From NCBI GenBank assembly GCA_900547725.1, contig URHR01000002.1:3294-67293 (forward strand): a DNA stretch of 64,000 bases. Reading direction: 5' to 3'. This DNA comes from an uncultured Eubacteriales bacterium (GTDB taxonomy: Bacteria > Bacillota > Clostridia > Oscillospirales > CAG-272). Positions within the stretch are counted from its first letter, which is position 1. Every line of letters begins with the position of its first letter. The notes below the pieces were generated by a model that saw only the letters and a program-made list of their open reading frames with translations, made no database searches and was not told where the DNA came from. Positions 1,091 to 61,611 of the stretch are shown piece after piece. Both the position numbers and the translations under genes were made by a program.

Positions 1091-3868
1091 ATGAAAAAAA
1101 GACTGTTCTGTCTTGCCCTGTGTCTTGTGATGCTTACGGCAACGGTCCTGACGGGCTGCTCGAGCAAGTCGCTTGACGAGGTACAATCGGAGTTCAAGAG
1201 AACGGCTTCCGAATTGGCGATTACGCTGACGATGTGGCTGGTGTCCGAGAAGGAAGTGGATTCCGAGACGGCAAGCCGTATCACCAAGGCGGTCAACAAC
1301 ATTACGGAATCCAAGTTCACCACCAGAATGCAGCTCTACTTCCTGACGGATGACGAGTACCGCACGGTGGTGACCGAAACCATCCGCAAGAGAGAGGACG
1401 CGAAGAGCATCTTTGCGGACAACTCCGTGAAGGAAGAGGAGACGACCGCGGCGGGCGAGAGCGGAACTGTGGTGAACGAGACCGAAACCGATAAGTTCGG
1501 TCGCATTACCATCAAATATCCCGACCTCAACCCGAATCAGGTTGATATCATCTACATCAACGGCGAGGATATGTTCCGCGAGTACGCCGCAAACGGTTGG
1601 CTCAAGCGGTTGGATGAGGAACTGAGCGCGTCCTCCAAGAAGATCAAGGAGTATGTGTCCCAGACACTTCTGAGCGCGGCGCAGATCAAAGGCGTTTCGG
1701 ACGGCAGTGAGGTCAACGGCACGTTCGCGATTCCGAACAACGCGACCATCGGCAAGTATACCTACATGCTGTTGGATAAGGATCTGATGCAGCAGACCAA
1801 CTTCTCGGGTATTTATGACAAGGGCGAGATTGACGGGTTCTTCAACCAGAGCATTTTCTCCTATCTGGATATCGTCCGCAAGTCCGACCCGGATGTCATT
1901 CCGGTTGACGCGACCTACGACCAGATGGTGGATCTGTTGGCGCACTATTGGTCTATCGACCCCGAAACTTACGAAGAGGACAGCAGTCGCTTCTCGCTTC
2001 TGGGCTATCGGTACACCAATCCCAAAACGCTTTCCAAGGGGCAGACGGTTCTGTCCTTCCAGAATCTCTTCAATGACGCAACCTTCCGCAAGAATTATTA
2101 CGAACTGAACCGGATGCGCCTGGACAACGGCTATTTCGGTACGGCGGCTGAGGGGCAGAAGGCGGCGGTGCGCTTTGAAACCGGCGACCTTGCGAAGTAC
2201 GAAAGCTATCGGAGCGAGGACAGCAAGTACTATCCCGTTATCGTCAAGTACCCGACGGTTGACGTGGACGATGTATATCAGAATATGTTCGGCGTTTGCG
2301 CGTATACGGTGGACGTTTCGCGCAGTATGCAGATCCTGACCTATCTGACCACGAATGTGGACTTCCGCAATCTGATTCAGTACGGGGAAGAGGACGTCGA
2401 CTACAAGAAGATCGAGAACGGAAACGTTGTGACTGTCGAGCGGCTTCAGGAAACCTACATGATGGACGTTTTCAAGACGGGAAATGCCTTCATCGCGTAC
2501 CCTGATCCCGCAAAGGATCTTTCTGCGGATGTCTGGGAGATCGGCAAGAAACAGAACCGCGACGCACTGATCGAGCCGCTTCTGAACTTTGATTTTGCGG
2601 CGTTGGCAAAGGCAACGGGCGCAACCGCGACAAGCGACCCCAAGATCGGTTCGTCGGGTTACACCTACAGTTGGAGCACAGGATACTCCCGCGAGGTCCT
2701 GGCGCAGAACGATTACCTCAAGGCGTGGATGGACGGCGCGGATCGTGCCGGCAAGGGCGTTTACGTTCTGCACACCTGCGCAAGCAACAACGCGCAGAAC
2801 CTCTACGCAACGGTCTATTACTACAATAACAATATTCAGAATGCCGATGTGAAAGTGACCGACAGCGGCAGTACCGTCAACGTCTCCTATGGCGGAAGCG
2901 CGGGCGACGGCTACGAGATCACGGTCATCAGCTTCTACGGAAAGAAGAATTCGAGCAAGCTTGACTGGAGCTACACGGCGGGCAACGTGACCGAATCGGC
3001 AAAGGTGACCTACCGCAACGCGCAGATCAGGTTTGACTTCCTCAACACCGAGACCTACAGCGTGAATCTGACCGCCAAGCTGACTAAGGCCATGATTGCC
3101 GACAATGCGGCGGCGATTGCATGGGTCAAGGCGCAGAGCGGAAACGACGCGGTTGTCGGAACATACACCGCAGATAACTCCGAGGGCGGTAAGACTTACA
3201 CCTATCTGGTTTATGTGCCGACTGTCAGCACCCCCTACAGCGTCAGCCTGATGCCGACGGGAACAGACAAGAACCTGAAACTGGCGGTTCATTACAGCGC
3301 CAATTCGTCGGGCAAGCTGAGCGATTCGGATGCAAAATATGCACTCTTCCTTGTAACGGTGCGGGCGGACAGCGACGTGGCGGTGGATATCAGCCTGAAC
3401 GGACTGGACGCAACCGAAAAGCCGATGGAGACTGATCCGAAGCTTGCATTCTGCGGTCTGTTGGATGTGGAACTTGTTAAGTACTTTGACGGGCTGACGA
3501 AAAAGGTGGAAGCGGTTGTGAACTCCGCAACCGATGAGGCGAAGCTGAAGGCGATTATCGACGATCTGGGCATTCTGTTTACGACACGCGAGAATCAGGT
3601 GTTTGTTAACGCGACTCTGCAGGAGGAACTGGCGGCGAAGCTTACCACCGACGAGGTCAAAGCTCTGGCGGCTGAGCTGGATCTCGAACGCTTCTACTGG
3701 AGTCTTCTGAGTGCCACGAGCACCTCGGAGGTGAAGCACAAAGAGGAAAAGACGGACGGTGAGAAAATTACGGTTGTGGATGCGGAGAAGAATCCCGTTT
3801 GCAACGAGCCGTACTACTACTTCCGTTCTCCCTCGGTGATTTACAACGAGTGGGCTTCCAAAAAATAA
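1091..3868 (+). CDS. Large (925 aa) lipoprotein; N-terminal half resembles extracellular solute-binding proteins, C-terminal ~400 aa unassigned
   Basis: GGAGG RBS 5 nt before ATG 1091. Signal peptide plus lipobox MKKRLFCLALCLVMLTATVLTGC. SBP-like strings occur (TLTMWLVSEKE, IIYINGEDMFREYAANGWLKRLD). The track ORF start at 977 is upstream of the RBS and signal peptide. Confidence 0.8.
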   Translation: MKKRLFCLALCLVMLTATVLTGCSSKSLDEVQSEFKRTASELAITLTMWLVSEKEVDSETASRITKAVNNITESKFTTRMQLYFLTDDEYRTVVTETIRKREDAKSIFADNSVKEEETTAAGESGTVVNETETDKFGRITIKYPDLNPNQVDIIYINGEDMFREYAANGWLKRLDEELSASSKKIKEYVSQTLLSAAQIKGVSDGSEVNGTFAIPNNATIGKYTYMLLDKDLMQQTNFSGIYDKGEIDGFFNQSIFSYLDIVRKSDPDVIPVDATYDQMVDLLAHYWSIDPETYEEDSSRFSLLGYRYTNPKTLSKGQTVLSFQNLFNDATFRKNYYELNRMRLDNGYFGTAAEGQKAAVRFETGDLAKYESYRSEDSKYYPVIVKYPTVDVDDVYQNMFGVCAYTVDVSRSMQILTYLTTNVDFRNLIQYGEEDVDYKKIENGNVVTVERLQETYMMDVFKTGNAFIAYPDPAKDLSADVWEIGKKQNRDALIEPLLNFDFAALAKATGATATSDPKIGSSGYTYSWSTGYSREVLAQNDYLKAWMDGADRAGKGVYVLHTCASNNAQNLYATVYYYNNNIQNADVKVTDSGSTVNVSYGGSAGDGYEITVISFYGKKNSSKLDWSYTAGNVTESAKVTYRNAQIRFDFLNTETYSVNLTAKLTKAMIADNAAAIAWVKAQSGNDAVVGTYTADNSEGGKTYTYLVYVPTVSTPYSVSLMPTGTDKNLKLAVHYSANSSGKLSDSDAKYALFLVTVRADSDVAVDISLNGLDATEKPMETDPKLAFCGLLDVELVKYFDGLTKKVEAVVNSATDEAKLKAIIDDLGILFTTRENQVFVNATLQEELAAKLTTDEVKALAAELDLERFYWSLLSATSTSEVKHKEEKTDGEKITVVDAEKNPVCNEPYYYFRSPSVIYNEWASKK

Positions 3869-49975: not shown

Positions 49976-50107
49976 ATGTGCAAAACGTAAATAAATATAG
50001 AAAATATGCAGATTCGCACCCCGTTTTGGCAAAAAATATGGTATAATATACAAGAAGGTGATGGGATTCCGAATTTCTCATGACAGGAAAAGAAAGGGGT
50101 TGTGACG

Positions 50108-50623
50108 ATGTTTGCAGTCGGTGAGTATGTCTATTACGCTTCGGAGGGGGTCTGCCACGTTGCGGATATCTGCTGCGCGCCCCTGTGCGGGATGCCTGCG
50201 GACAGGATTTACTATGTGCTCCACCCGTTCCGCAACAACGGCGGGGTGCTGTATGTGCCAACCGACAGCGAGAACGTTTTTCTGCGCCGCCTGCTGACGG
50301 CAGAGGAGGCGAACCGTCTGCTGAACGAGATTCCCGCAATGGAGGCGTTCGAAGAACCGAATGCAAAGGCGTTGCGCCTGCGGTATACCGAAGCCATGCA
50401 TACCCACACGCCCTCCGAATGGGTGCGGGTCATCAAAACCGTGCGCGAACGGGTCAGCCGCATACGCGGCAGTTCGCGGGCACAGCGTATCTCGGAAACC
50501 GAACGCGGCTTTGCCGAGGACGCAAAGCGGTATCTCTACGCCGAGCTGTCGTTGGCTCTCGATGTTCCCGTCGGCGAGATGGAACAGTATATCCGCAACC
50601 GTATTGAAATCTGCTCTGCCTGA
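50108..50623 (+). CDS. CarD/CdnL/TRCF-domain family protein
   Basis: N-terminal FAVGEYVYYASEGVCHVADI...YYVLHP...LYVPTD matches the CarD_CdnL_TRCF RNAP-interacting domain pattern. Confidence 0.75.
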   Translation: MFAVGEYVYYASEGVCHVADICCAPLCGMPADRIYYVLHPFRNNGGVLYVPTDSENVFLRRLLTAEEANRLLNEIPAMEAFEEPNAKALRLRYTEAMHTHTPSEWVRVIKTVRERVSRIRGSSRAQRISETERGFAEDAKRYLYAELSLALDVPVGEMEQYIRNRIEICSA

Positions 50624-50656: not shown

Positions 50657-50677
50657 GTATGAAATCATCAAATCAGG

Positions 50678-50706
50678 TTGACAAAACGGTTGTAATATGC
50701 TATAAT
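50678..50706 (+). promoter_or_regulatory. Consensus sigma-A promoter of the HprK-like/PqqD/S24 operon
   Basis: TTGACA at 50678-50683, 17-nt spacer, extended -10 TGcTATAAT ending at 50706. Confidence 0.75.
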
Positions 50707-50742
50707 AGAACAGAAATCAACAGAACGGAGCAAACCACGTCT

Positions 50743-51447
50743 ATGTTTATTATCCGCCTTGCCGAGATCCGTATCCGGATCGAGAACCGATATGCGTTTA
50801 TTGAGCGGCAGTGCGCCGGTTACATCTGCCCGGGGGACGAGTATGCTTTTTCCGTCTCGGCGAGCGAGGAGGAATTGCAGGAGGAGCAGAAGAACGGCGA
50901 TTTTTCCGCCGCCTATTGCGAAAGCATCTGTCTCTACCGTCATATCTGCGAGACTTTGCCGAACTACAATGTGTTTCTGATGCACGCCTCAATCATTGAG
51001 GCGGACGGAAACGCCTACGCCTTTACCGCTAAGAGCGGGGTCGGGAAATCCACCCATACGGCGCTGTGGCTGAAAAATATTCCGAATGCACGGGTTCTCA
51101 ACGGAGACAAGCCGTTGCTTCGCGTGGAGACGGACGGCTCGGTGACGGCGTTCGGGACTCCGTGGAACGGGAAGGAAAACTGGGGCGAGAATATCTCCGC
51201 TCCGCTCCGCGCCATCTGCTTTATCGAGCGCGGAGAGGTCAATTCCATCCGGCGGGCAACGCAGGAGGACGCGATCGGGCGGTTGGTTCACCAACTTTAC
51301 CTGCGCGGAACGCGGGCGTCGGTCAACAAACAGCTGACGCTGATGGACGCATTGGTGCGGGCAGTGCCGTTCTGGGTTCTTTCCTGCACGATTTCCGACG
51401 AGGCGGCAAAGGTCGCCTATGAAGCCATGAAATATAACGGTCAGTGA
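50743..51447 (+). CDS. HPr-kinase-like P-loop protein (HprK C-terminal domain-related)
   Basis: 234 aa from ATG 50743. FTAKSGVGKSTHTALWL...VLNGDKPLL parallels the HprK/P P-loop region GxSGxGKSxxALxL...LxxDD. Confidence 0.6.
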   Translation: MFIIRLAEIRIRIENRYAFIERQCAGYICPGDEYAFSVSASEEELQEEQKNGDFSAAYCESICLYRHICETLPNYNVFLMHASIIEADGNAYAFTAKSGVGKSTHTALWLKNIPNARVLNGDKPLLRVETDGSVTAFGTPWNGKENWGENISAPLRAICFIERGEVNSIRRATQEDAIGRLVHQLYLRGTRASVNKQLTLMDALVRAVPFWVLSCTISDEAAKVAYEAMKYNGQ

Positions 51448-51464
51448 CCGAAAAGGAGAAGCAT

Positions 51465-51731
51465 ATGCGAATCAAAAAGGATTTTACCATTCAGAAGGTC
51501 GGCGATTCCTACATTGCCGTGGCAGTCGGGGAGACGAGCAAGACCTTTCACGGGATGGTGCGGCTGAACGAAACCGGCGCGTTTCTGTGGAAGAAGCTGA
51601 GCGAGGCGGATATTACGCTTGACGAATTGGTGGACGCCATGCTGAAAGAATACGAGGTAGACCGCGAGACTGCGGCACAGGACGCGGCACGTCTGGTGGA
51701 GCAGTTCCGCGAGAACGGAATTCTCGAATGA
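51465..51731 (+). CDS. PqqD family protein (RiPP recognition element-type peptide chaperone)
   Basis: 88 aa with an AGGAG RBS 6 nt upstream. LNETGAFLWKKLSEADITLDELVDAMLKEYEVDRETAAQDAARLVEQFRENGIL is a textbook PqqD/RRE pattern. Confidence 0.8.
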   Translation: MRIKKDFTIQKVGDSYIAVAVGETSKTFHGMVRLNETGAFLWKKLSEADITLDELVDAMLKEYEVDRETAAQDAARLVEQFRENGILE

Positions 51732-52198
51732 CGGAAACCGCAGAGTCGAACGGCAATATCGAGCGGCAGCTTGCCGAGCAGGGCTTTTATGTCAGCACAA
51801 CGGTCGGGTGCAGTATGCGCCCCATGCTCCGCAACCGCCGGGATCGCGTGATCGTCCTGCCCATCGGGGACGAACGGCTGAAAAAATACGACCTGCCGCT
51901 CTACCGCCGCCCCGACGGGAAATATATCCTGCACCGGATCATCGGCGTGCGGGACGGGGAATATGTGATAAGAGGGGACAATACCTATGCAAAGGAATAC
52001 GTCCCCGACGCGTGGGTGCTGGGCTATGTCACGGAGTTCTACCGCGGGAAACGGCACGTCCTGTCATCGGCACGGTCTTACCGTTTCTATGCGCGCGTGT
52101 GGAATCTGATCTATCCCGTGCGGCGCGTCTTTCATGCGGGACGATCTTTCGCCGCCCGCGTGTGGCACAAACTCAAACCCAAAAAGCACTCCGTATAA
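51728..52198 (+). CDS. S24/S26-family serine peptidase-like protein (LexA/signal-peptidase fold)
   Basis: GCSMRPML nucleophile motif, HRIIGV...VIRGDN block, ATGA overlap with the PqqD gene. No N-terminal TM anchor. Confidence 0.7.
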   Translation: MTETAESNGNIERQLAEQGFYVSTTVGCSMRPMLRNRRDRVIVLPIGDERLKKYDLPLYRRPDGKYILHRIIGVRDGEYVIRGDNTYAKEYVPDAWVLGYVTEFYRGKRHVLSSARSYRFYARVWNLIYPVRRVFHAGRSFAARVWHKLKPKKHSV

Positions 52199-53214: not shown

Positions 53215-53243
53215 TTGACAAAAGAAGAAGTCTGTGGTATACT
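53215..53243 (+). promoter_or_regulatory. Sigma-A promoter with upstream A-tract driving the riboswitch-controlled locus
   Basis: A-rich tract (TTTTAAAAAAAGAAAAAAAG) precedes TTGACA at 53215-53220, then a 17-nt spacer and extended -10 TGgTATACT ending at 53243. Confidence 0.75.
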
Positions 53244-53254
53244 GGTTTTAACAA

Positions 53255-53340
53255 AAGCGAATACTTAGCAAAACCGTCGTGAGGCGGCGACGCAAAGCCT
53301 TGGGGACTTTTCCGGAAAGGGAAAGTCAGCCCGGTTGCAA
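53255..53340 (+). promoter_or_regulatory. c-di-GMP-I (GEMM-I)-like riboswitch aptamer
   Basis: GCAAAaCCGUC-GUGA(GNRA)-GGCGGcGACGCAAAGCC..GGGGACUUUUCC-GGAA-AGGGAAAGUCAGCCCGGUUGC. It follows the same order of conserved blocks as the V. cholerae Vc2 aptamer (GGCAAACC..GAAA..GGGACGCAAAGCC..AGCGGGGUUACC). Confidence 0.8.
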
Positions 53341-53395
53341 TTTGGATGGATGATACAGGTGTATCATCTTCCTTTGCAACCGGGCTTTGCTTTTT
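53328..53395 (+). terminator. Riboswitch expression-platform terminator
   Basis: AGCCCGGTTGCAA (53328-53340) pairs perfectly with TTGCAACCGGGCT (53374-53386). An inner GATGATAC/GTATCATC helix lies between them. TTGCTTTTT follows. The 5' arm is shared with the aptamer. Confidence 0.8.
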
Positions 53396-53429
53396 ATCTG
53401 CATTTAAAAGCGGTAAAGGAGGGTTCGGA

Positions 53430-54950
53430 ATGGCGAACAACAACCAAAACAAAAGGGTCGGCTCATTTGCCGCGATCAACGGGGGCGTGATTGAAGGGTG
53501 CTCGGCGAATGTACAGCTGAGCGGATGCCCCAACGGTGCGGGCTTTGTGTTCGGAAACAGCGGCGTGGTAAAAAACTCCGTTGCAATGCGCGTGGGGCGC
53601 GGGAAGGGCGTTACGGGCTTTTACAAGCGGAACACGGGCACGATCAATTCCTGCGGATATCTTGCAGACCCCAAGAAGCGCCGGATTGACCGCAGCGGCA
53701 ACGTGACGGTTGCAACCGGAAATCCCGAGTGCTTCATGCCGAAGGGAACGCCTTCGGATCAACTCTATCATAAACTCGGACTTCAGAACCTGTGGAAGAA
53801 CGAGCGCACCAAGCGCGGCTTTGTTCTCGAGCCTGACCGCTTCCGCAACCGCGCGGTGCTGTTCGGTGCGCAGGAACGCGTGATTCCGATCAAAACGGCG
53901 GCGGATCTGACGCGGATCATTACCGCTGTCAATTCGGGCGACCGCGCGGCGGCTTCGGCAAACTATATGCTGGAAGCAAGCATCAATATGCGCGGCGCAA
54001 AACTCGAGCCGATCGGACTTTCCGAAGCGCTCCCGTTCAGCGGTTGCTTTGACGGAAACGGCAAGACGATCTACAATTTCAAGATCGACTGCACGGGAAT
54101 GGAGTACGGCGGCTTCTTCGGCTACACCAAGAACGCAAAGATTGCGAACCTCACGCTTGACTATGTCCTGAAGGGCAAGCGCGGAATCGTGACGGGCGGA
54201 ATGATCGGAAACGCGGTCGGCGGCGGCGTTGCAAACTGCCATGTCCGCGTGGGCATGACGGTTGGAAGCTGCGCAGGTGGCTTTGTGGGGAAGAATACGG
54301 GATATATTCAGAACTGCTATGTCTGCGGCAGTGTGGCAGGACCTGTTCCGGTGTTGCCGATTGTGACCTCAGTTGCGGCGGTTCTGCTGGCGGCAACCGT
54401 TACGACTTCGGTTATCGTGGTGAAGAAACTGACCTCGGACACGGTGTTCAGCCCCGAGGTGATCGACCCGAACCAGAAGCCCGCGCCGCCCGAAAAGGAT
54501 CAGCCCGATCCGTTGCCCACGGGAACAAGCCGCCTGAGTCTGCGGCTGAATCAGGACGTGGACGTCAGCTACGCAACGGGCGTTGGCGTAATCAATTATG
54601 TCAATCCCGCATCCAGTACGCATGATATGGTGATTCGGCTCTGCATCTCCGACACGGAGCTGAAAAAAGCGGGGATCGACCTGATCGCGGCGGGAGTCCG
54701 CAAGCAGTCGGAAACGGAAGCCGATGGCTACGATCCCGACAAGGCATTGACAACCTTTTACCAGTCGGGCAGAGTCCAGATCGGCTATCAGTTGGAGAAC
54801 TGCAAGATCACCGCGCTTCCGGGCGGCGACAAATTGCCTGTAGGAGAATACAAAGCCGTGATGGTGATCGAGCCGTATGACCCGAAAACCAACGAAAAAT
54901 CAATCGTGAACGCGCAGGCAGAGATCACCCTTCGCATCCTCAATCGGTAA
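53430..54950 (+). CDS. Bitopic membrane protein: ~305-aa GLUG-repeat N-terminal region, one TM helix, ~185-aa C-terminal domain; no signal peptide
   Basis: AAGGAGGG RBS before ATG 53430. GLUG-like repeats (FSGCFDGNGKTIYNF, GGFFGYTKNAKIANL, GGMIGNAVGGGVANCHV, GGFVGKNTGYIQNCYV). TM helix VPVLPIVTSVAAVLLAATVTTSVIVV (~54343-54423). Confidence 0.8.
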   Translation: MANNNQNKRVGSFAAINGGVIEGCSANVQLSGCPNGAGFVFGNSGVVKNSVAMRVGRGKGVTGFYKRNTGTINSCGYLADPKKRRIDRSGNVTVATGNPECFMPKGTPSDQLYHKLGLQNLWKNERTKRGFVLEPDRFRNRAVLFGAQERVIPIKTAADLTRIITAVNSGDRAAASANYMLEASINMRGAKLEPIGLSEALPFSGCFDGNGKTIYNFKIDCTGMEYGGFFGYTKNAKIANLTLDYVLKGKRGIVTGGMIGNAVGGGVANCHVRVGMTVGSCAGGFVGKNTGYIQNCYVCGSVAGPVPVLPIVTSVAAVLLAATVTTSVIVVKKLTSDTVFSPEVIDPNQKPAPPEKDQPDPLPTGTSRLSLRLNQDVDVSYATGVGVINYVNPASSTHDMVIRLCISDTELKKAGIDLIAAGVRKQSETEADGYDPDKALTTFYQSGRVQIGYQLENCKITALPGGDKLPVGEYKAVMVIEPYDPKTNEKSIVNAQAEITLRILNR

Positions 54951-54995
54951 TCCCTGCGCAGTCGAAAGTCGAAAAATTGAGAGGAGGTGGGGAGA

Positions 54996-57900
54996 ATGAA
55001 AACGAAATTCGGAAAGTGGATTGCAGGCGCGGTCGCGTTCTGCATAGTACTGGCAACCGTGTTGGCAGTTCCGTTCGGTTTCCTTCTTCCCTCGTCTGCG
55101 GAGTCGGCTTTCGCAACCTTTTCTTCCGGCGCTGTGCTGATCGATTCTTCGTACAACGGGAAAAATGTCATCATCAAAAACGGCGTTTTCTCGGTTACGG
55201 TTGTCGGAGCGACGAATGTCACACTTCTGTTTGAAGGCGCGACAATGAACCGCAGATATGCCGATGATACGGAAAGCGGAAAACAGATTGAGGGGCTTTG
55301 GGCTGTTTCGCAGAAACTCGGATGGAACAACAAAGCGCAGGTCTGCCCGCTTCTGATTACCGGCAATTCGGAAGTCAAGGTGGCATTCCGCGGAGCAAAC
55401 TATTTCTATGCGGGGGTCAATGGTTGCACCGTAAATTCGAGCAATTACTATACAAAGTCGCAAAGCGGCGGCGGATTTGCTGGCATTCAGGTTGACAGCG
55501 GTTCGACCCTGACGATTGAACAGAGCAACGGCTCGGTAGCCGCCTATGGCGGTCACTGGGTGAATGTAAACAACTCCTCCAACAATCCGAGTGATTCCAC
55601 CAATTTTCCAAATGGCAGGGAATGGGAAGGTTACGGATCGCCCGCCGGAACTACAGCCAATAGTCTTGCAGGCGGCGCCGGAATCGGCGGCGGCGTGTCC
55701 GGTACTACCACAACCTGCGATAATACGGCGTATACACAGGGCACACCGGGAACCATCATGATCAACGGCGGCGAAATCCATGCGTTCGGAGGACATCAGG
55801 CGGCAGGAATCGGCGGCGGTGTAAACGGCGCGGCAACTTCAACTTCCATCACTGTTACCGGCGGAACAATCGAAGCCCACGGCGGACGTTGGGCGGCAGG
55901 GATAGGCGATGGAGACTCGCTTCCCTATCACCCGAGCAATCAGTTTTCAAAATCCTATTCCGTCAATATCTCGGGCGGAACGGTGACCGCCGTTGGCGGG
56001 GTTGGATGCGCGGGCGTTGGGTGTACCGATGATGTGAAAAATTCCGGAATGACAATCGAGCTGTCCGGCGGTAACATCACGGCGCATTCCGGCTATCCGG
56101 ACGGATTCGATCCGAGCACCGGCACTTACAGAAACAACAAAGCACTGTCGGACAGTGATCCGACTCCGGCGGGTATCGGCGCAGGAAACAAATCCAAAAT
56201 GGCTGAGCATTCGATCATCATCCGGGAGGGAACGCAAATTACAGCCGCTTCCTTCGGCCATTATTCCATTACGGAAAACGGATTGAACCAGAGCCAAGTC
56301 CCCAATATTTCTCTTGAGCAGTGCAGAATGTACAACGGTCGTTTTCCGAACCTGACCTCTTCTAAAGACCGTACCTTCCGGCTTCTGGAAGCGCAGAGAG
56401 AAGACATTCTTGTAAACGGAAAGGTCGGAAACTACATCAAATTCATTACACAGCCGAGCGACGGTTCTGAAGGAACGGTTTATTACTACGATTCCGATGA
56501 ATTTATGCTTCTGAATGCAGACAAAACCGTTTATCCGCTGTCGGATGACTTGGAGACGCGCGAAAAGGAACTGTTGAAGCTCTTCGAGGATCATCATATG
56601 ACGCTTTATGCCGATAAAACCTCAAAAGAGACGAGGCGCGTTGTGGCGCGGAAGCATTTCAAATCCATTGCAATGACGCTTCCCGATCCCGCATTGCACG
56701 GCGGCATTTACGCATTGGAAATCCCGACCTCCCAGTTGGTGTCAGTCCCCGACGGGGTAACCTTTCCGGAAAGCGAAAAGGTCTACATCACGATCAGCGC
56801 GCTGACCCCCGGAAACATCTGGGGCGAAATCGATTATCCGTTCAGCTACAACATGAAGCTTGACGCGGTTTCCTCTCCCTTTGAAAATCTCGACGTTTAT
56901 CCGAGCGCAGATTGGCAGGGGCGGGACGACGGCTACATCGGAAACAAATATTCCGAAAGCCTGTTTGCCTACACGGTCTACATCGAAAGCGACGCAACCG
57001 AAACCTACGTTTACGCAATGTTTGTGATGGAGGACGGCGTTACCTACACGGTGAAGCTTGACAATGTGCTTCAGACAATCGAGACCGAAACGAAAACCGT
57101 GGACGGCGTGACAGTCAAAATCGGCCATATCATGATGAAAGTCTCCATGGCGGGGGTGACCCAAAAAGTTCTGCAACTGGAAAAGCAGGACACCAACAAC
57201 ACAGTAGCCGCGCACTCCATCATTTACAAGATCACCATCAACCGCAAGGCAACCTACACCCTCAGCCTGAAAGACCTCAGCAAAACCTACGACGGCAACC
57301 CGGTTGTTCCCTCGGTTGAGGCGGTGCTGAACGGGAGCGGCGCTACGGCGGAAAAGGTGACTGTCCCGGAAGAGGATCTGAAGAGCGCAACCTTTACCTA
57401 CGGCGTTGGTACAACCACGGGTCTGACCGAAGCGCCGAAGGACGCAAGCAACGGCGAGAATGGCTATTCCGTAACCGCTACAATCAACACCGAGACCTAT
57501 ACGGCAACGGGAACGGCTTACTTCTCCATTTATAAAAAGCAACTGTCGGTTACGCGCATCGGAAACTATCTGCTGTACGTCAAATCGAGCGACTACGAGA
57601 AGTGGAAAGATCAGGGCACTTACCCGATTTCCGACCCGGGTGCGATTTTCCTTTCGGGGCTTGTGAAGAATGAAAGCGTGACGTTGACCCACGGAAACGT
57701 TTACTATAACGACCTTTCCATTGGCTACGGCGCAACGAAAATCACGCTTGAGAATGTGCAGATTTCGGGCGACGCCGCAAAGAACTACACCATTGACCCA
57801 ACGCAGACCGTGTTCGGACAGATCAACTATTCGCTTGACGGCGCAATCTTCCGCTCGGAGGACGGCGGGTCATGGGACAAGTTCTATCCGATTGACAGTG

Positions 57901-58484
57901 AAAACCCCGTAAACGGCACGAGCGCGGACTACCATTCGCCCAAAAACGCGGACGGAAGCTACACTTCGCACGCGGAGTATGTCTGGGCGAGAACGCAGGG
58001 CGGCGGCACGGCGCAGGCAGTCTATGCAATGGAAATCGAGTTCGGCGCAATGTATTTCAACTATACCAAGGAAGTCTGGAATACCGACTCCATGAAGTAC
58101 GAGCAAGCCGAAAACGGGGAATCCTTCTGGATCGGCTTTGACGGCAAGAACAACTGCGTAACGGTTGTCAACCGCTCCAATGCGGCGATCTTCTGCAACG
58201 TCAAACCCGAAATTTCCTTCATCTACGCCTCGCATGACGGCGGGCAGAGCGGCATTGTGGCAAAGGTTTACACCAAGAACGAGGCAAACACGAATTACCT
58301 TGTAACCGAAACCGAGGATGTGACCATTCCACAAGCGACCCCGCCCGAAACCGTGACGGGGACGGGAACTGCCACGCGGCAGTCGTTCTACCTGATCCTC
58401 TCGGGAAACCCGCAGTCAGGCAATACCGACAGATATATCGCCGTTGGCGATATGATCGTAACCGTTAAGAAATCTTCCGATTGA
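54996..58484 (+). CDS. 1162-aa secreted adhesin-like protein: signal peptide, beta-helix-type GG..AGIGGG repeats, YDG/MBG-like modules, C-terminal domain shared with the four downstream small proteins
   Basis: GAGGAGG RBS 8 nt before ATG 54996. Signal peptide MKTKFGKWIAGAVAFCIVLATVLAV...SSA. Four units of type IxIxGGxIxAxGG..AAGIGGG. KTYDGNP...AAKNYTI modules. C-terminus EIEFGAMYFNY..WN..Y...VVNRSN. Confidence 0.85.
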   Translation: MKTKFGKWIAGAVAFCIVLATVLAVPFGFLLPSSAESAFATFSSGAVLIDSSYNGKNVIIKNGVFSVTVVGATNVTLLFEGATMNRRYADDTESGKQIEGLWAVSQKLGWNNKAQVCPLLITGNSEVKVAFRGANYFYAGVNGCTVNSSNYYTKSQSGGGFAGIQVDSGSTLTIEQSNGSVAAYGGHWVNVNNSSNNPSDSTNFPNGREWEGYGSPAGTTANSLAGGAGIGGGVSGTTTTCDNTAYTQGTPGTIMINGGEIHAFGGHQAAGIGGGVNGAATSTSITVTGGTIEAHGGRWAAGIGDGDSLPYHPSNQFSKSYSVNISGGTVTAVGGVGCAGVGCTDDVKNSGMTIELSGGNITAHSGYPDGFDPSTGTYRNNKALSDSDPTPAGIGAGNKSKMAEHSIIIREGTQITAASFGHYSITENGLNQSQVPNISLEQCRMYNGRFPNLTSSKDRTFRLLEAQREDILVNGKVGNYIKFITQPSDGSEGTVYYYDSDEFMLLNADKTVYPLSDDLETREKELLKLFEDHHMTLYADKTSKETRRVVARKHFKSIAMTLPDPALHGGIYALEIPTSQLVSVPDGVTFPESEKVYITISALTPGNIWGEIDYPFSYNMKLDAVSSPFENLDVYPSADWQGRDDGYIGNKYSESLFAYTVYIESDATETYVYAMFVMEDGVTYTVKLDNVLQTIETETKTVDGVTVKIGHIMMKVSMAGVTQKVLQLEKQDTNNTVAAHSIIYKITINRKATYTLSLKDLSKTYDGNPVVPSVEAVLNGSGATAEKVTVPEEDLKSATFTYGVGTTTGLTEAPKDASNGENGYSVTATINTETYTATGTAYFSIYKKQLSVTRIGNYLLYVKSSDYEKWKDQGTYPISDPGAIFLSGLVKNESVTLTHGNVYYNDLSIGYGATKITLENVQISGDAAKNYTIDPTQTVFGQINYSLDGAIFRSEDGGSWDKFYPIDSENPVNGTSADYHSPKNADGSYTSHAEYVWARTQGGGTAQAVYAMEIEFGAMYFNYTKEVWNTDSMKYEQAENGESFWIGFDGKNNCVTVVNRSNAAIFCNVKPEISFIYASHDGGQSGIVAKVYTKNEANTNYLVTETEDVTIPQATPPETVTGTGTATRQSFYLILSGNPQSGNTDRYIAVGDMIVTVKKSSD

Positions 58485-58538: not shown

Positions 58539-59174
58539 ATGAAAAAATTTCTTTCCCTTATGCTCGCAGGCTTGATGTCCGCATCCCTGTTCGTCGTTGG
58601 TGCAGCGGCGGATACTTTGAAAGATGGTGTTGTCGGTCCGAATCATGGCGTTTTGGAAAACGAATTTAACACCCCTGTCCAAGACGGTGGTAACAAAATC
58701 AATGTCAAGGTTGAGAAGGTGACACACAAGTATGCGGTTGATTTAAAGTTTTCGTTTGGCGATTTGACAATCGGCCATCTTGAATGGAATGTCGATACCA
58801 TGCGTTATGACACTGTAAAAGGCGAGGAATTGAAGAACACAACCAGAGAAATTACAGTTTCCAACCGTTCCGACCTGCCTATTCAAGCGTATGCAACCGT
58901 TTCTCCTGCTGCGGACAAAGCACCCGATTTAACTATTGGAATGACCGGAGAAGGCGATTCGGAGACGAATAAGCTGACTGTGTCAGCGGCGAACAAGGGT
59001 CAAGGAGAGGCGAATGGAGAGCCCACCACGGGAACGTTGACGGTCAAGTTGGAAAGCAATGCATGGGGTTCGGTTGCGCAACATTACATCGATATGCAGT
59101 TTGCAACACCCGATAGTGAAAAGACATACACAGTTGCAACCGTTACGGTTATCATCAGCAAAAGCGCACAATAA
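58539..59174 (+). CDS. Small secreted protein, paralogue 1 of the locus-specific domain family (211 aa)
   Basis: Signal peptide MKKFLSLMLAGLMSASLFVVGAAA. Core YAVDLKFSFGDLTIGHLEWNVDTMRY...ITVSNRSDLPIQAY. C-terminal beta-strand-like TVATVTVIISK. Confidence 0.85.
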   Translation: MKKFLSLMLAGLMSASLFVVGAAADTLKDGVVGPNHGVLENEFNTPVQDGGNKINVKVEKVTHKYAVDLKFSFGDLTIGHLEWNVDTMRYDTVKGEELKNTTREITVSNRSDLPIQAYATVSPAADKAPDLTIGMTGEGDSETNKLTVSAANKGQGEANGEPTTGTLTVKLESNAWGSVAQHYIDMQFATPDSEKTYTVATVTVIISKSAQ

Positions 59175-59260: not shown

Positions 59261-59779
59261 ATGAAAAAGATTCTTGTTTGTATGATGGTTCTGGCGCTCT
59301 GCCTCTGCGCAACGATTTCGTCGTTCGCAGCGGGACAATCCGAGGGTGAATATACCGGTCAGAAGGAAAATCAGGATGTCAATGTTACAATCTCGGGTGC
59401 TATTGTTCATACCTATCTGGTTGACATTGAGTTTGCCAATCCGACTTTCACTTATTCTACCGGTTCGGTCTGGAATCCGGAGAAGTATCAGTACGAGCCG
59501 AGCACCGAGGCTACGTGGAATGGTACAGGCGAAGTGAAAATCGTCAACCATTCCGACCTGCCTGTTACTTACAAGGTAGAAGCCACGGATGTTGTGGACA
59601 CCTACGGCACGCTGACCATTCCCGTGACGAACGGGGACGGCACGATTGCAAAGTGCGCAGTCGGCGATGCTCGCGGCAGCCACAACGCAACCGCGACCTA
59701 CAAGGTTGAGGGAACTCCCACGGTTTCGGAAATCACCGCGCAGAAGCTCGGTTCGATTCTCGTAACCATCACAAAGTAA
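59261..59779 (+). CDS. Small secreted protein, paralogue 2 (172 aa)
   Basis: GGAGG RBS. Signal peptide MKKILVCMMVLALCLCATISSFA. Core YLVDIEFANPTFTYSTGSVWNPEKYQY...VKIVNHSDLPVTYK. C-terminus GSILVTITK. Confidence 0.85.
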   Translation: MKKILVCMMVLALCLCATISSFAAGQSEGEYTGQKENQDVNVTISGAIVHTYLVDIEFANPTFTYSTGSVWNPEKYQYEPSTEATWNGTGEVKIVNHSDLPVTYKVEATDVVDTYGTLTIPVTNGDGTIAKCAVGDARGSHNATATYKVEGTPTVSEITAQKLGSILVTITK

Positions 59780-59845: not shown

Positions 59846-60388
59846 GTGAAACTGAGAAGAATTTTGGTACAATTGTTCATAGCGACCGCGGTTTTGCTTC
59901 TCCCGGTACTTGTTTTCGCCGAGCCGATTCAATCGGTTGGCGGGGGAGCGGATGTCGTGATTTCCGTGATCGACAACCGCAAAACCGTGCGCTATGAAGC
60001 CGATGTGGTATTCCGCAATACCACATACACCTACAATCTGGTCAGCGTTGCCGAAAATGTGGAAACCGGCGAACGCTACATCAACAGCGGCTTTTGGCGG
60101 GAGGCAAGCGGTGTGGAGGCGGATTCGTTTACCGTTTCGGTTAAAAACCGTTCCAACCGTGCCTTAACCGTTGAAACAGAGCCGAATACCGCCGACTTTG
60201 ACCGATGCGGCGCAGGGGTGACCCTGTATGGGGGAGGAGAAATCACAATCCCCGAAGTCGGGCAGGCAGACGGCAAAACCGTTGCTTACGAGAATGTGTT
60301 TGAAGCCGTGTTCGGTCGGTTTCCGAGTCTGGATTCCTACAAGGGAGTCAAACGGATTACCGCAACCGTGCGCCTGAAGCATTCGTGA
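59846..60388 (+). CDS. Small secreted protein, paralogue 3 (180 aa, divergent)
   Basis: AGGAG RBS, GTG start. Signal peptide MKLRRILVQLFIATAVLLLPVLVFA. Core YEADVVFRNTTYTY...VSVKNRSNRALTVE. C-terminus ITATVRLKHS. Confidence 0.8.
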   Translation: MKLRRILVQLFIATAVLLLPVLVFAEPIQSVGGGADVVISVIDNRKTVRYEADVVFRNTTYTYNLVSVAENVETGERYINSGFWREASGVEADSFTVSVKNRSNRALTVETEPNTADFDRCGAGVTLYGGGEITIPEVGQADGKTVAYENVFEAVFGRFPSLDSYKGVKRITATVRLKHS

Positions 60389-60428: not shown

Positions 60429-61082
60429 ATGAAAAACAGAATCTTCCAGTCTATACGGGCTCTTTTCGCCGCCGTTTTGTCGGTTTCGCTCACCGTTTCG
60501 GTTCTTTCCGCCTTTCCTGCCGCCCGCGCGGAGGAAACGGGAAGCACTGCCGGAACAAAGACCTATCAATATTCCGTTGAAATCGAGTTCGGCGCTATGA
60601 CCTTTTGCTATGACTACGGGACATGGAATCCGTCCAATCTGCGCTATGAAGCCGACGAAACCGAAAATCCCGGTGCGGGAACGGTTGCGGGCTACCCGGG
60701 GTGGTACGGTTTTGACGGAACGGCAAACAAAATCAGCGTGAAATACCACGCAACCGAAGCCACCGGGGAAGCAAACAGCCTGTTGCAGGTCATGCTCTCT
60801 TACCGTGCGCTGACCGCTACCGACGGAGGCACGTCCATTGCGGCAGGCGTTGCGGGCGTAAAGTCCGAGTTATATGCCGATACGGCGCTGACCCAAAAGC
60901 TCGGCGATCTCGACGGGGACGGCATTGCGCTGTCGGTTGCAAAGAACGGTTCGGCTGAGGTCTGGCTGTCGCTGAAGGGCGAGCCGATGGTGAACGGCAA
61001 CCCGTTCACGTCTCAGAACTTGATTCCCATCGGAATGCTGACCATTGCGCTTGCGGGATTTACAACGGATGGAGGAAACTGA
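60429..61082 (+). CDS. Small secreted protein, paralogue 4 (217 aa)
   Basis: AGGAGGAG RBS. Signal peptide ...SVLSAFPAARA. Core YSVEIEFGAMTFCYDYGTWNPSNLRYE is nearly identical in pattern to the adhesin C-terminus. Confidence 0.85.
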   Translation: MKNRIFQSIRALFAAVLSVSLTVSVLSAFPAARAEETGSTAGTKTYQYSVEIEFGAMTFCYDYGTWNPSNLRYEADETENPGAGTVAGYPGWYGFDGTANKISVKYHATEATGEANSLLQVMLSYRALTATDGGTSIAAGVAGVKSELYADTALTQKLGDLDGDGIALSVAKNGSAEVWLSLKGEPMVNGNPFTSQNLIPIGMLTIALAGFTTDGGN

Positions 61083-61083
61083 A

Positions 61084-61611
61084 ATGCACAGATACAGCAC
61101 AACCCAATTGAAAAGGATTCTCCCCATCGGAGCTGTCTGCCTGCTTTTGGCTGCCGCCGTGGTTGCGGGAGTGGTATTCGCCATCCTGTTCAAACCGGAA
61201 ATCTACGAGAAGCAAGCCATGGACGGCGCGCCGCAGGAACTGCCCGAGAGCTACGGTTACGTTTCCTACGAAACCGAGGGTGTTTGCAAGGTCTTTCTTG
61301 CCTGCACGCCCGCGTTTGACGGAACGTTTGCAGGCATCAATCTGACCAACCCCGTGGAAAACAACGTTTTGCTCAAAGCCGAGCTCTACTCGGTCAAGGT
61401 GGTGCAGACGGGTGACGGAAAAGCCGATTTTGCCCCCGATAAAAAGCTTGGAGAGACGGGATTCCTCCGCCCGGGCACTTATGTGGAGAATGTCAAGCTG
61501 AGCGGTCTGACCGCGGGCGAAGAAAACCGCGTGCTGGTCAAAATCGCCACCATGAATGAGGAGAACCGCACAAGCAACGGTTTCTTCTACATCCGAACCA
61601 CCATTTCCTGA
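61084..61611 (+). CDS. N-terminally membrane-anchored protein (175 aa) whose ectodomain resembles the C-terminal domain of the GLUG protein
   Basis: GGAGGA RBS. The ATG lies 1 nt after the upstream stop. Anchor KRILPIGAVCLLLAAAVVAGVVFAILF. GINLTNPVENN..LRPGTYVENVKL..VLVKI compares with VINYVNPASST..VQIGYQLENCKI..VMVIE in 53430-54950. Confidence 0.8.
   Translation: MHRYSTTQLKRILPIGAVCLLLAAAVVAGVVFAILFKPEIYEKQAMDGAPQELPESYGYVSYETEGVCKVFLACTPAFDGTFAGINLTNPVENNVLLKAELYSVKVVQTGDGKADFAPDKKLGETGFLRPGTYVENVKLSGLTAGEENRVLVKIATMNEENRTSNGFFYIRTTIS

Follow-up and report, generated by a model that had tools for sequence, protein, structure and literature searches.

The 64,000-nucleotide stretch analysed here (the window) covers positions 3,294 to 67,293 of the forward strand of contig URHR01000002.1 (assembly GCA_900547725.1), from an uncultured Eubacteriales bacterium. 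The window carries a seven-gene operon, G1 to G7, which is flanked by genes for purine nucleoside phosphorylase and NAD synthase and preceded by a promoter and by a cyclic di-GMP (c-di-GMP) class I riboswitch. The first gene, G1, is the object of this study. It is an open reading frame (ORF) of 506 amino acids (aa) located at 53430-54950, with its stop codon at 54948-54950, and encodes a protein composed of a GLUG-type beta-helix, a single transmembrane (TM) helix and a beta-sandwich domain that recurs in the product of the last gene, G7. The features of the locus are the following:

53215-53243, plus strand: sigma-70-type promoter (TTGACA, 17 nt spacer, TATACT, TG extension)
53257-53342, plus strand: c-di-GMP-I riboswitch aptamer (RF01051), 51.2 bits against a gathering score of 35, with model positions 1-87 fully covered
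53328-53395, plus strand: intrinsic terminator, the riboswitch expression platform, with a 13-bp outer stem and an inner stem followed by a U-run
53430-54950, plus strand: G1, bitopic membrane protein of 506 aa
53430-54338, plus strand: N-terminal GLUG-type beta-helix domain of G1 (residues 1-303), predicted to be cytoplasmic
54342-54431, plus strand: TM helix of G1 (residues about 305-334), from Kyte-Doolittle hydropathy and the AlphaFold2 (AF2) model
54432-54947, plus strand: C-terminal beta-sandwich of G1, "A3-type" (residues 335-506), predicted to be extracytoplasmic
54987-58484, plus strand: G2, secreted protein of 1165 aa with signal peptide, Beta_helix_3, YDG and a C-terminal domain of the G3-G6 kind
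58539-59174, plus strand: G3, small secreted beta-sandwich paralogue of group A, fast-evolving
59261-59779, plus strand: G4, small secreted paralogue of group B, fast-evolving
59846-60388, plus strand: G5, small secreted paralogue of group C, missing from some loci
60429-61082, plus strand: G6, small secreted paralogue of group D, nearest to the C-terminal domain of G2
61084-61611, plus strand: G7, N-anchored protein of 175 aa, "A6-type", paralogue of the G1 C-terminal domain (C-domain)

Conservation of the operon across genomes

When one genome of each species was scanned, 28 loci with a G1-type cassette were found (loci are numbered L0xx throughout), all of them in metagenome-assembled genomes (MAGs) of uncultured gut Clostridia. 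The closest to the window G1 was found in UBA6330 (94% identity), followed by Eubacterium sp. CAG:180 (86%), and the remaining loci are labelled Oscillospiraceae or Acutalibacteraceae, among others. A hidden Markov model (HMM) map of the 28 loci displays the same order in every complete locus, namely G1, G2, two to five small secreted paralogues and G7. The proposal of an initial annotation, made from the sequence alone, that the secreted components are enclosed by two anchored proteins is therefore borne out in every complete locus of the family. The cassettes hold these gene families alone, and their flanks differ and are unrelated between loci. No paper on this operon was found in the literature.

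Architecture of the G1 protein

The ATG start codon of G1 at 53430 is preceded by a strong Shine-Dalgarno sequence (AAAGGAGGG, at 53415-53423). The protein possesses a sole strongly hydrophobic stretch, which peaks at residues 297-335 (Kyte-Doolittle 2.26), and its AF2 model, with a mean predicted local distance difference test (pLDDT) score of 84.9, contains one helix at this position (residues 308-334). Residues 332-333, directly after the TM helix, are two lysines (KK). Searching 5.8 billion proteins yielded 44 clusters of G1 homologues, which are unnamed and about 500 aa long, the exceptions being some fragments, a single chimera and two GLUG proteins of 828-866 aa that are unrelated. In an alignment of 19 members the leader is absent, the same internal helix is present, and the motif PEVIDPNQ is found right behind this helix. 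No N-terminal leader was found in any of 41 members, the best 19-residue window starting in residues 1-30 having a Kyte-Doolittle value of at most 1.23, and the internal hydrophobic peak of these members is about 2.0-3.1, with the exception of P0041 (1.38), a 481-aa chimera with short-chain dehydrogenase domains. The description of G1 in the initial annotation, as a protein with no signal peptide and with a single late TM helix followed by KK, is thus confirmed by hydropathy and by the AF2 model, and the lack of an N-terminal hydrophobic segment extends to 41/41 members.

An in-frame start codon further upstream could have supplied a signal peptide, as the initial annotation had pointed out. 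The candidate, ATG 53346, was checked and rejected: it adds 28 aa (MDDTGVSS...) that are neither hydrophobic nor basic, it lies inside the riboswitch terminator, and the extension is not conserved, its length differing among homologous loci.

Two MAG loci, L035 (9803-11472) and L032 (3353-4869), have G1 as two separate ORFs, with G2 likewise fragmented in L032. The split genes represent either frameshifts or assembly errors, and are possibly pseudogenes.

The GLUG-type N-terminal domain

The Pfam Glug model (PF07581) scores the window G1 at 17.8 bits, which is below its cut-off of 20.5. Precomputed PF07581 matches are present on the G1 homologues P0003, P0017 and P0020, and the distant matches P0043 and P0044 are classical GLUG proteins. 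With a profile of G1 residues 1-303, matches at 1e-15 to 1e-38 were obtained to large secreted proteins that themselves reach 56-63 bits on Glug. In the AF2 model, residues 9-303 form a beta-helix with pLDDT >90 across most of the domain, whose rungs (9-80 and about 178-303) are separated, at about 80-178, by a helical insert or cap. When G1 was compared with a viral library using Foldseek, it matched GLUG or "IgA1 protease" proteins, among them a "putative IgA1 protease" at E=2.5e-5. Profile homology and the beta-helix fold place G1 among the GLUG proteins, from which it departs by its score below the Pfam gathering threshold and by the lack of a secreted location. Of the roughly 305 aa of GLUG repeats that the initial annotation had described from the N-terminus onward, the type is upheld by profile and fold, and the continuous run gives way to two blocks of rungs on either side of the helical interruption.

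Cysteine content, which averages 8.7 residues in the N-terminal domain (N-domain) versus 2.5 in the C-domain, was considered as a marker of topology and discarded. The cysteine of the "NCY" motif is intrinsic to GLUG repeats, and is also found in the repeats of P0044, a GLUG protein with a signal peptide.

The C-terminal domain and its relation to G7

The initial annotation had also observed that the domain following the TM helix of G1 resembles the last gene product, encoded at 61084-61611. A BLASTP comparison between the G1 C-domain and G7 gave E=6e-4. With hhalign, a narrow comparison against a 7-sequence alignment of G7 orthologues nearly failed (E=0.033); the comparison with a 60-sequence alignment of the G7 family gave a probability of 88.8% and E=2.5e-6 over 110 columns, and this match spans the juxtamembrane segment up to the "YDP/YEP-x-T" strand. 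The two families are further linked by intermediates: a 173-aa anchored protein (L038, 309-830), encoded beside a G7-like gene, matches both profiles (2.8e-15 and 2.2e-13), and the frameshifted C-terminal G1 fragment of L035 matches the G7 profile (4.9e-4). Because the 60-sequence comparison and these independent intermediates concur, the homology between the G1 C-domain and the G7 ectodomain can be regarded as established at the level of sequence profiles, the two being distant paralogues. They are distinguished by an insertion of ~35 residues in G1, which is partly helical. An exhaustive HMMER search with the G7 profile delivered 326 representative clusters, nearly all of which are N-anchored proteins of 155-190 aa.

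Searching the PDB with profiles of G1, its C-domain, the small paralogues and G7 returned no true relative. Matches to designed SAKe Kelch proteins were rejected as spurious, since they arise from a short "YDP-x-TNE" motif summed over repeats, with no significant single stretch; their source in G1 is the "YDP-x-TNEK" strand at residues 464-493. Pfam and NCBIfam hold no family for the anchors or the small paralogues, whether from the window, from distant members or from the sister operons described below.

Sister operons and the origin of G1

A profile made from distant relatives of G7 was used to scan metagenomes, and 80 loci were found. Where a locus extends far enough to include its flanks, it almost always encodes, in this order, a large secreted protein, an A3-type anchor, small secreted paralogues and an A6-type anchor. 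In many of these sister operons the large protein combines genuine GLUG modules with a C-terminal domain of the subunit type and, if its 5' end is covered by the sequence, a Sec leader. The A3-type anchor is a stand-alone protein of 171-191 aa, which matches the G1 C-domain profile at 1e-15 to 1e-21 and the G7 profile more weakly, and it is followed by one to three small secreted paralogues and then by a G7-like protein. The stand-alone anchors align position for position with the TM helix and C-domain of G1, and display short, strongly basic N-tails (e.g. MERKKGKRNR) and acidic segments after the TM helix. Because of this alignment, and because GLUG modules are part of the secreted large protein in the sister operons, G1 is best described, judging from these sequences, as a domain fusion, in which a leaderless GLUG module was joined to the cytoplasmic end of an A3-type anchor. 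The initial annotation had missed this fusion. On the same alignments, the C-domain of G1 is orthologous to the stand-alone anchored proteins.

Two of these loci, L078 (9902-12647) and L072 (7708-10465), contain a second module, composed of a gene for a 522-aa protein with the small-paralogue domain and of a second G7-like anchor gene; the anchor-plus-subunit unit can therefore be duplicated. Just downstream of sister operons, an extra secreted GLUG protein of ~590 aa (Glug 62.9 bits) is encoded in L054 (11446-13194), with equivalents in L061, L062, L067, L073 and L081.

Membrane topology

G1 most likely adopts an N-in/C-out topology, with its GLUG domain in the cytoplasm. This orientation is favoured because the protein has no leader, because of the charges flanking the helix in the family (on average +2.5/-0.2 before and +2.1/-2.5 after, or net about +2.4 versus -0.4), because the helix is homologous to signal anchors, and because the C-domain is homologous to G7-type ectodomains. 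The initial annotation had left a dilemma between a GLUG region inside the cell and one exported without a leader; the alignment with the stand-alone anchors and the family flank charges largely settle this dilemma for a cytoplasmic GLUG domain.

Sequence divergence and selection

The ratio of nonsynonymous to synonymous substitution rates (dN/dS) of G1 residues 1-145 and 146-303 is 0.05-0.14 in unsaturated comparisons (dS up to about 1.3), and equals that of the C-domain. The N-domain is therefore not a relic, and these ratios indicate that it is under purifying selection and is kept functional. Protein identity and dN between the window and its closest genome, L010, differ widely along the operon:

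G1: 94% identity, dN 0.026
G5: 88% identity, dN 0.069
G7: 87% identity, dN 0.065
G6: 79% identity, dN 0.128
G2: 78% identity, dN 0.153
G4: 60% identity, dN 0.342
G3: 52% identity, dN 0.427

When proteins were clustered at 90% identity, about 41 clusters of G3 were found at 88-99% identity to the window copy, and 2 clusters of G1 in that same range. The divergence pattern of G3 suggests strain-level hypervariability of exposed subunits. The combination of conserved anchors and hypervariable secreted subunits fits the pattern expected of an assembly or anchoring machinery plus exposed structural or antigenic parts.

Upstream control region

The promoter at 53215-53243 matches the consensus at 11/12 positions, and is the best site within the scanned region. 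The c-di-GMP-I aptamer is located on the same strand as G1, 88 nt upstream of the start codon, and its 3' strand is at the same time the 5' arm of the terminator (AGCCCGGUUGCAA). With ligand bound, transcription should thus read through, and from this arrangement we infer that the riboswitch is built as an ON switch. Aptamer score and coupled expression platform both point to membership of the operon in the c-di-GMP-I regulon. The initial annotation had noticed a terminator in the space upstream of G1; a hairpin does lie there, and what had been missed is that it constitutes the expression platform of a riboswitch.

Aptamers were also found just upstream of the G1 homologues in L007 (two copies), L010, L011, L012, L015, L016 and L018, and the overlap between aptamer and terminator is kept in 8/9 riboswitch copies, the stem being weaker in L007a. 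The two aptamers of L007 are arranged in tandem (3299-3665), next to a divergent gene (1167-3089) for a protein that combines GGDEF, response-regulator and HD-GYP domains.

Secreted components and genomic neighbours

Motif and Pfam checks of G2-G6 revealed neither an LPXTG motif nor a cell-wall-binding domain, so that retention on the cell would need the anchored proteins. No sortase was found in the Pfam-annotated loci, nor did these loci show a peptidase or an ATPase beside the cassettes. The small paralogues of groups A-C possess an extra N-terminal strand, which is absent from group D and from the C-domain of G2.

Foldseek comparison of the G1 model with the PDB gave weak matches (best E=2.8e-3 over about 140 columns; TM-score about 0.35, or 0.3-0.4 when target-normalised). 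The top matches are the chaperones DraB, FaeE, PapD, SafB and Caf1M and the pilins CfaB, AggA, CssB and CsuA/B. The model of G3 matches generic immunoglobulin (Ig)-like domains only, and neither pilins nor TasA specifically. These predicted folds are compatible with a fibre whose subunits complement each other by beta-strands.

Three small genes are located further upstream in the window (50659-52198), and encode an HprK-related kinase-like protein (weak ScmC/HprK_rel_A matches), a PqqD-family protein (67.7 bits) and an S26-type peptidase-like protein. The ORF for the latter (51728-52198) is leaderless, matches archaeal-type signal peptidase I at 24.2 bits against a cut-off of 51.85, lies outside the operon, and probably goes with its PqqD-family and HprK-related kinase-like neighbours. 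The trio resembles a peptide-maturation cassette, and is separated from the operon by the nucleoside phosphorylase gene. A gene for a CarD/CdnL-type RNA-polymerase-binding protein (50102-50623; CarD_TRCF_RID, 37.6 bits) is unrelated to G1.

Interpretation

The reading that we favour, and consider slightly more likely than not, is that the operon constitutes a c-di-GMP-induced, Sec-dependent and sortase-independent surface-structure cassette, in which G1 and G7 serve as tethers. The seven genes, G1 first, would be transcribed only when c-di-GMP is high, and their products would form a multi-subunit surface structure of a gut Oscillospirales-type Clostridium. G1 would be inserted N-in/C-out with its C-terminal beta-sandwich facing outward, and G7 would be tethered by its N-terminal signal anchor. 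These two tethered beta-sandwich proteins would hold, and perhaps help to assemble, G3-G6 and G2, the latter, with its C-terminal domain of the subunit type, being probably the distal adhesin. The GLUG module, added to the first anchor on its cytoplasmic side, would stay inside and be kept there by selection, where it may act as a stopper, or as a domain for docking or clustering of the anchor. That G1 and G7 together work as a basal anchor or an assembly platform, we infer from gene order, conservation pattern and fold.

Several points weigh against this interpretation. Of the loci that include sequence upstream of G1, 8 yielded an aptamer there and about 23 others none. The fold matches of G1 and G3 are weak and generically Ig-like, and the AF2 model of G3 is moderately confident (pLDDT 66), its N-terminal 63 residues scoring <50. 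Contacts of the anchors with the secreted subunits are putative. The flanks of the helix are ambiguous in the window G1 itself (one K before, KK after), so that the charge argument applies at the level of the family only. Lastly, no paper on cytoplasmic GLUG domains was found in the literature, and thus no precedent for a folded cytoplasmic GLUG beta-helix.

Two alternatives concern the N-domain of G1. The GLUG domain could be exported by a leaderless route and displayed outside, with the helix as anchor and the C-domain in the cytoplasm, as might be supposed from the fact that GLUG modules are otherwise found on secreted proteins, those of the sister operons included, and from the KK directly behind the helix in the window G1. 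We consider this inverted orientation very unlikely: the C-domain has its homologues in the ectodomains of proteins with basic N-tails and signal anchors, the flank charges favour N-in at the family level, no type VII secretion system (T7SS) or holin genes are found within the cassette, and we know of no mechanism in monoderm bacteria for the leaderless translocation of a folded 300-residue N-terminal domain. The architecture of G1 looks as if a GLUG module had been captured from the neighbouring large adhesin gene, and the N-domain might accordingly be a functionless remnant of a decaying fusion. That possibility is barely credible, as it is contradicted by a dN/dS (0.05-0.14) identical to that of the C-domain, by 25 invariant N-domain columns among 19 aligned members, one of which is just 29% identical to the window G1, by the confident AF2 model of the domain, and by its intact presence in 41/41 full-length members.

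Given that the cytoplasmic domain appears to be under purifying selection and that the operon is linked to c-di-GMP, G1 could also be a transmembrane signalling protein, whose outside domain senses the assembly state or a ligand and whose beta-helix relays this to a cytoplasmic partner. Anti-sigma factors and inside-out c-di-GMP receptors such as LapD offer a model, as the bitopic N-in/C-out layout of G1, with its large cytoplasmic domain, resembles theirs. Such a role seems improbable to us: Pfam and NCBIfam detect no anti-sigma, HTH, GGDEF, EAL, PilZ or kinase domain in G1, the neighbourhood of the cassette has no conserved gene for a sigma factor or a regulator, and the cytoplasmic tail of the sister-operon anchor counts 10-20 residues, so that the core function does without a cytoplasmic domain. 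A narrower version of the surface-structure reading, to which we give a somewhat better though still low chance, is a donor-strand fibre, in which G3-G6 would polymerise by beta-strand complementation beneath a G2 tip, with the G1 C-domain and G7 as tethered counterparts of the chaperones of chaperone-usher systems or as terminal anchor subunits. It would account for the chaperone-usher chaperones and pilins at the top of the G1 fold matches, for the extra N-terminal strand, present in groups A-C but not in group D or the G2 C-domain, for the low confidence at which the N-terminal 63 residues of G3 are modelled, and for presumed subunits that are hypervariable alongside a presumed machinery that is conserved. 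These fold matches are weak, however (E of at least 2.8e-3, TM-score 0.3-0.4), Ig-like folds match promiscuously, G3 has no specific pilin or TasA match, no PapD, usher or TasA Pfam match was obtained, and the extra strand is only a few residues away from the next core strand and may belong to the same sandwich. By extension, the operon could represent an unrecognised class of monoderm surface fibre, with Ig-like subunits strand-complemented on tethered chaperone-like A3- and A6-type proteins, with no sortase, usher or ATPase, switched by c-di-GMP, and with a GLUG domain gained by the anchor of the G1 lineage as mechanical stopper or clustering module, which would make it the first functional GLUG domain of the cytoplasm; we rate this as unlikely to a similar degree.

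If the surface-structure interpretation holds, uncultured and abundant gut Clostridia gain a c-di-GMP-responsive organelle for adhesion or biofilm formation, the parts of which are annotated as hypothetical today. The pairing of conserved anchors with hypervariable subunits points to a surface antigen that varies between strains, with a bearing on host colonisation and on phage or immune recognition. Should the tethered Ig-like proteins be assembly chaperones, they would represent a new solution to pilus assembly for bacteria without a periplasm. The G1 fusion would also be a natural experiment, in which a type of domain known from secreted proteins alone was moved to the cytoplasmic side and retained by selection.

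Comparison with known systems

The operon is reminiscent of chaperone-usher pili in its small Ig-like secreted subunits, in a large tip protein with a domain of the subunit type at its end, in accessory Ig-like proteins whose best (weak) fold matches are of the PapD type, and in the combination of variable subunits with conserved machinery. It differs from these pili in that the host is apparently monoderm, in the absence of an usher and of a two-domain PapD-like chaperone, and in the membrane tethering of the accessory proteins. No PapD or usher Pfam match was found in the seven operon products, the resemblance being a weak one at the level of one domain. It is likewise set apart from sortase-assembled pili, as G2-G6 have no C-terminal LPXTG and the Pfam-annotated loci no sortase.

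The TasA/TapA/SipW system of Bacillus is a Sec-dependent, sortase-independent Firmicute fibre with TapA as accessory anchoring protein, and the structure proposed here would resemble it in being Sec-dependent, sortase-independent and extracellular. The operon is unlike TasA/SipW fibres in having no TasA/Peptidase_M73 Pfam match, no TasA among the G3 fold matches and no dedicated signal peptidase. Endospore appendages (F-ENA) were considered and set aside: the subunits in the published abstract are of a head-neck kind and tethered to spores, whereas Sec signal peptides are found on G2-G6. To our knowledge, ENA subunits are without Sec signal peptides.

In the WxL/Csc clusters of Lactobacillales, one large and several small secreted proteins that share a C-terminal domain form a sortase-independent complex with membrane-anchored accessories. 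The organisation of the G1 operon is analogous, and the likeness is one of analogy only: its anchors are N-terminal signal anchors, the folds are not detectably related, and no WxL, DUF916 or DUF3324 Pfam match was found in the seven operon proteins at E up to 1.

With the GLUG proteins (PF07581), which include streptococcal IgA1-protease-type and other large surface proteins, G1 has in common the repeat unit GG-F/L-x-G ... I-x-N-C-Y and a helical cap followed by "F-x-G-x-F-D-G-N-G-x-T-I". Unlike those surface proteins it has no signal peptide, and its GLUG domain lies N-terminal to a helix of the signal-anchor type, and is thus most likely cytoplasmic.

The closest parallel in regulation is found in the adhesin and pilus genes that are controlled by c-di-GMP-I riboswitches in Firmicutes, e.g. 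in the c-di-GMP regulon of Clostridioides difficile. As in these, a class I aptamer that overlaps a terminator is located in the leader of a surface-protein operon; at G1-type operons the riboswitch is restricted to some lineages, and these operons differ from such genes in encoding families without a Pfam or NCBIfam model, and neither a sortase substrate nor a type IV pilin. The general kind of system, a c-di-GMP-controlled operon for a surface adhesin or fibre of a Firmicute, is thus known already. What is new are the components of the operon, of which three small families (A3-type anchor, A6-type anchor and secreted paralogues) have no Pfam, NCBIfam or PDB relative, and the predicted cytoplasmic location of a GLUG domain.

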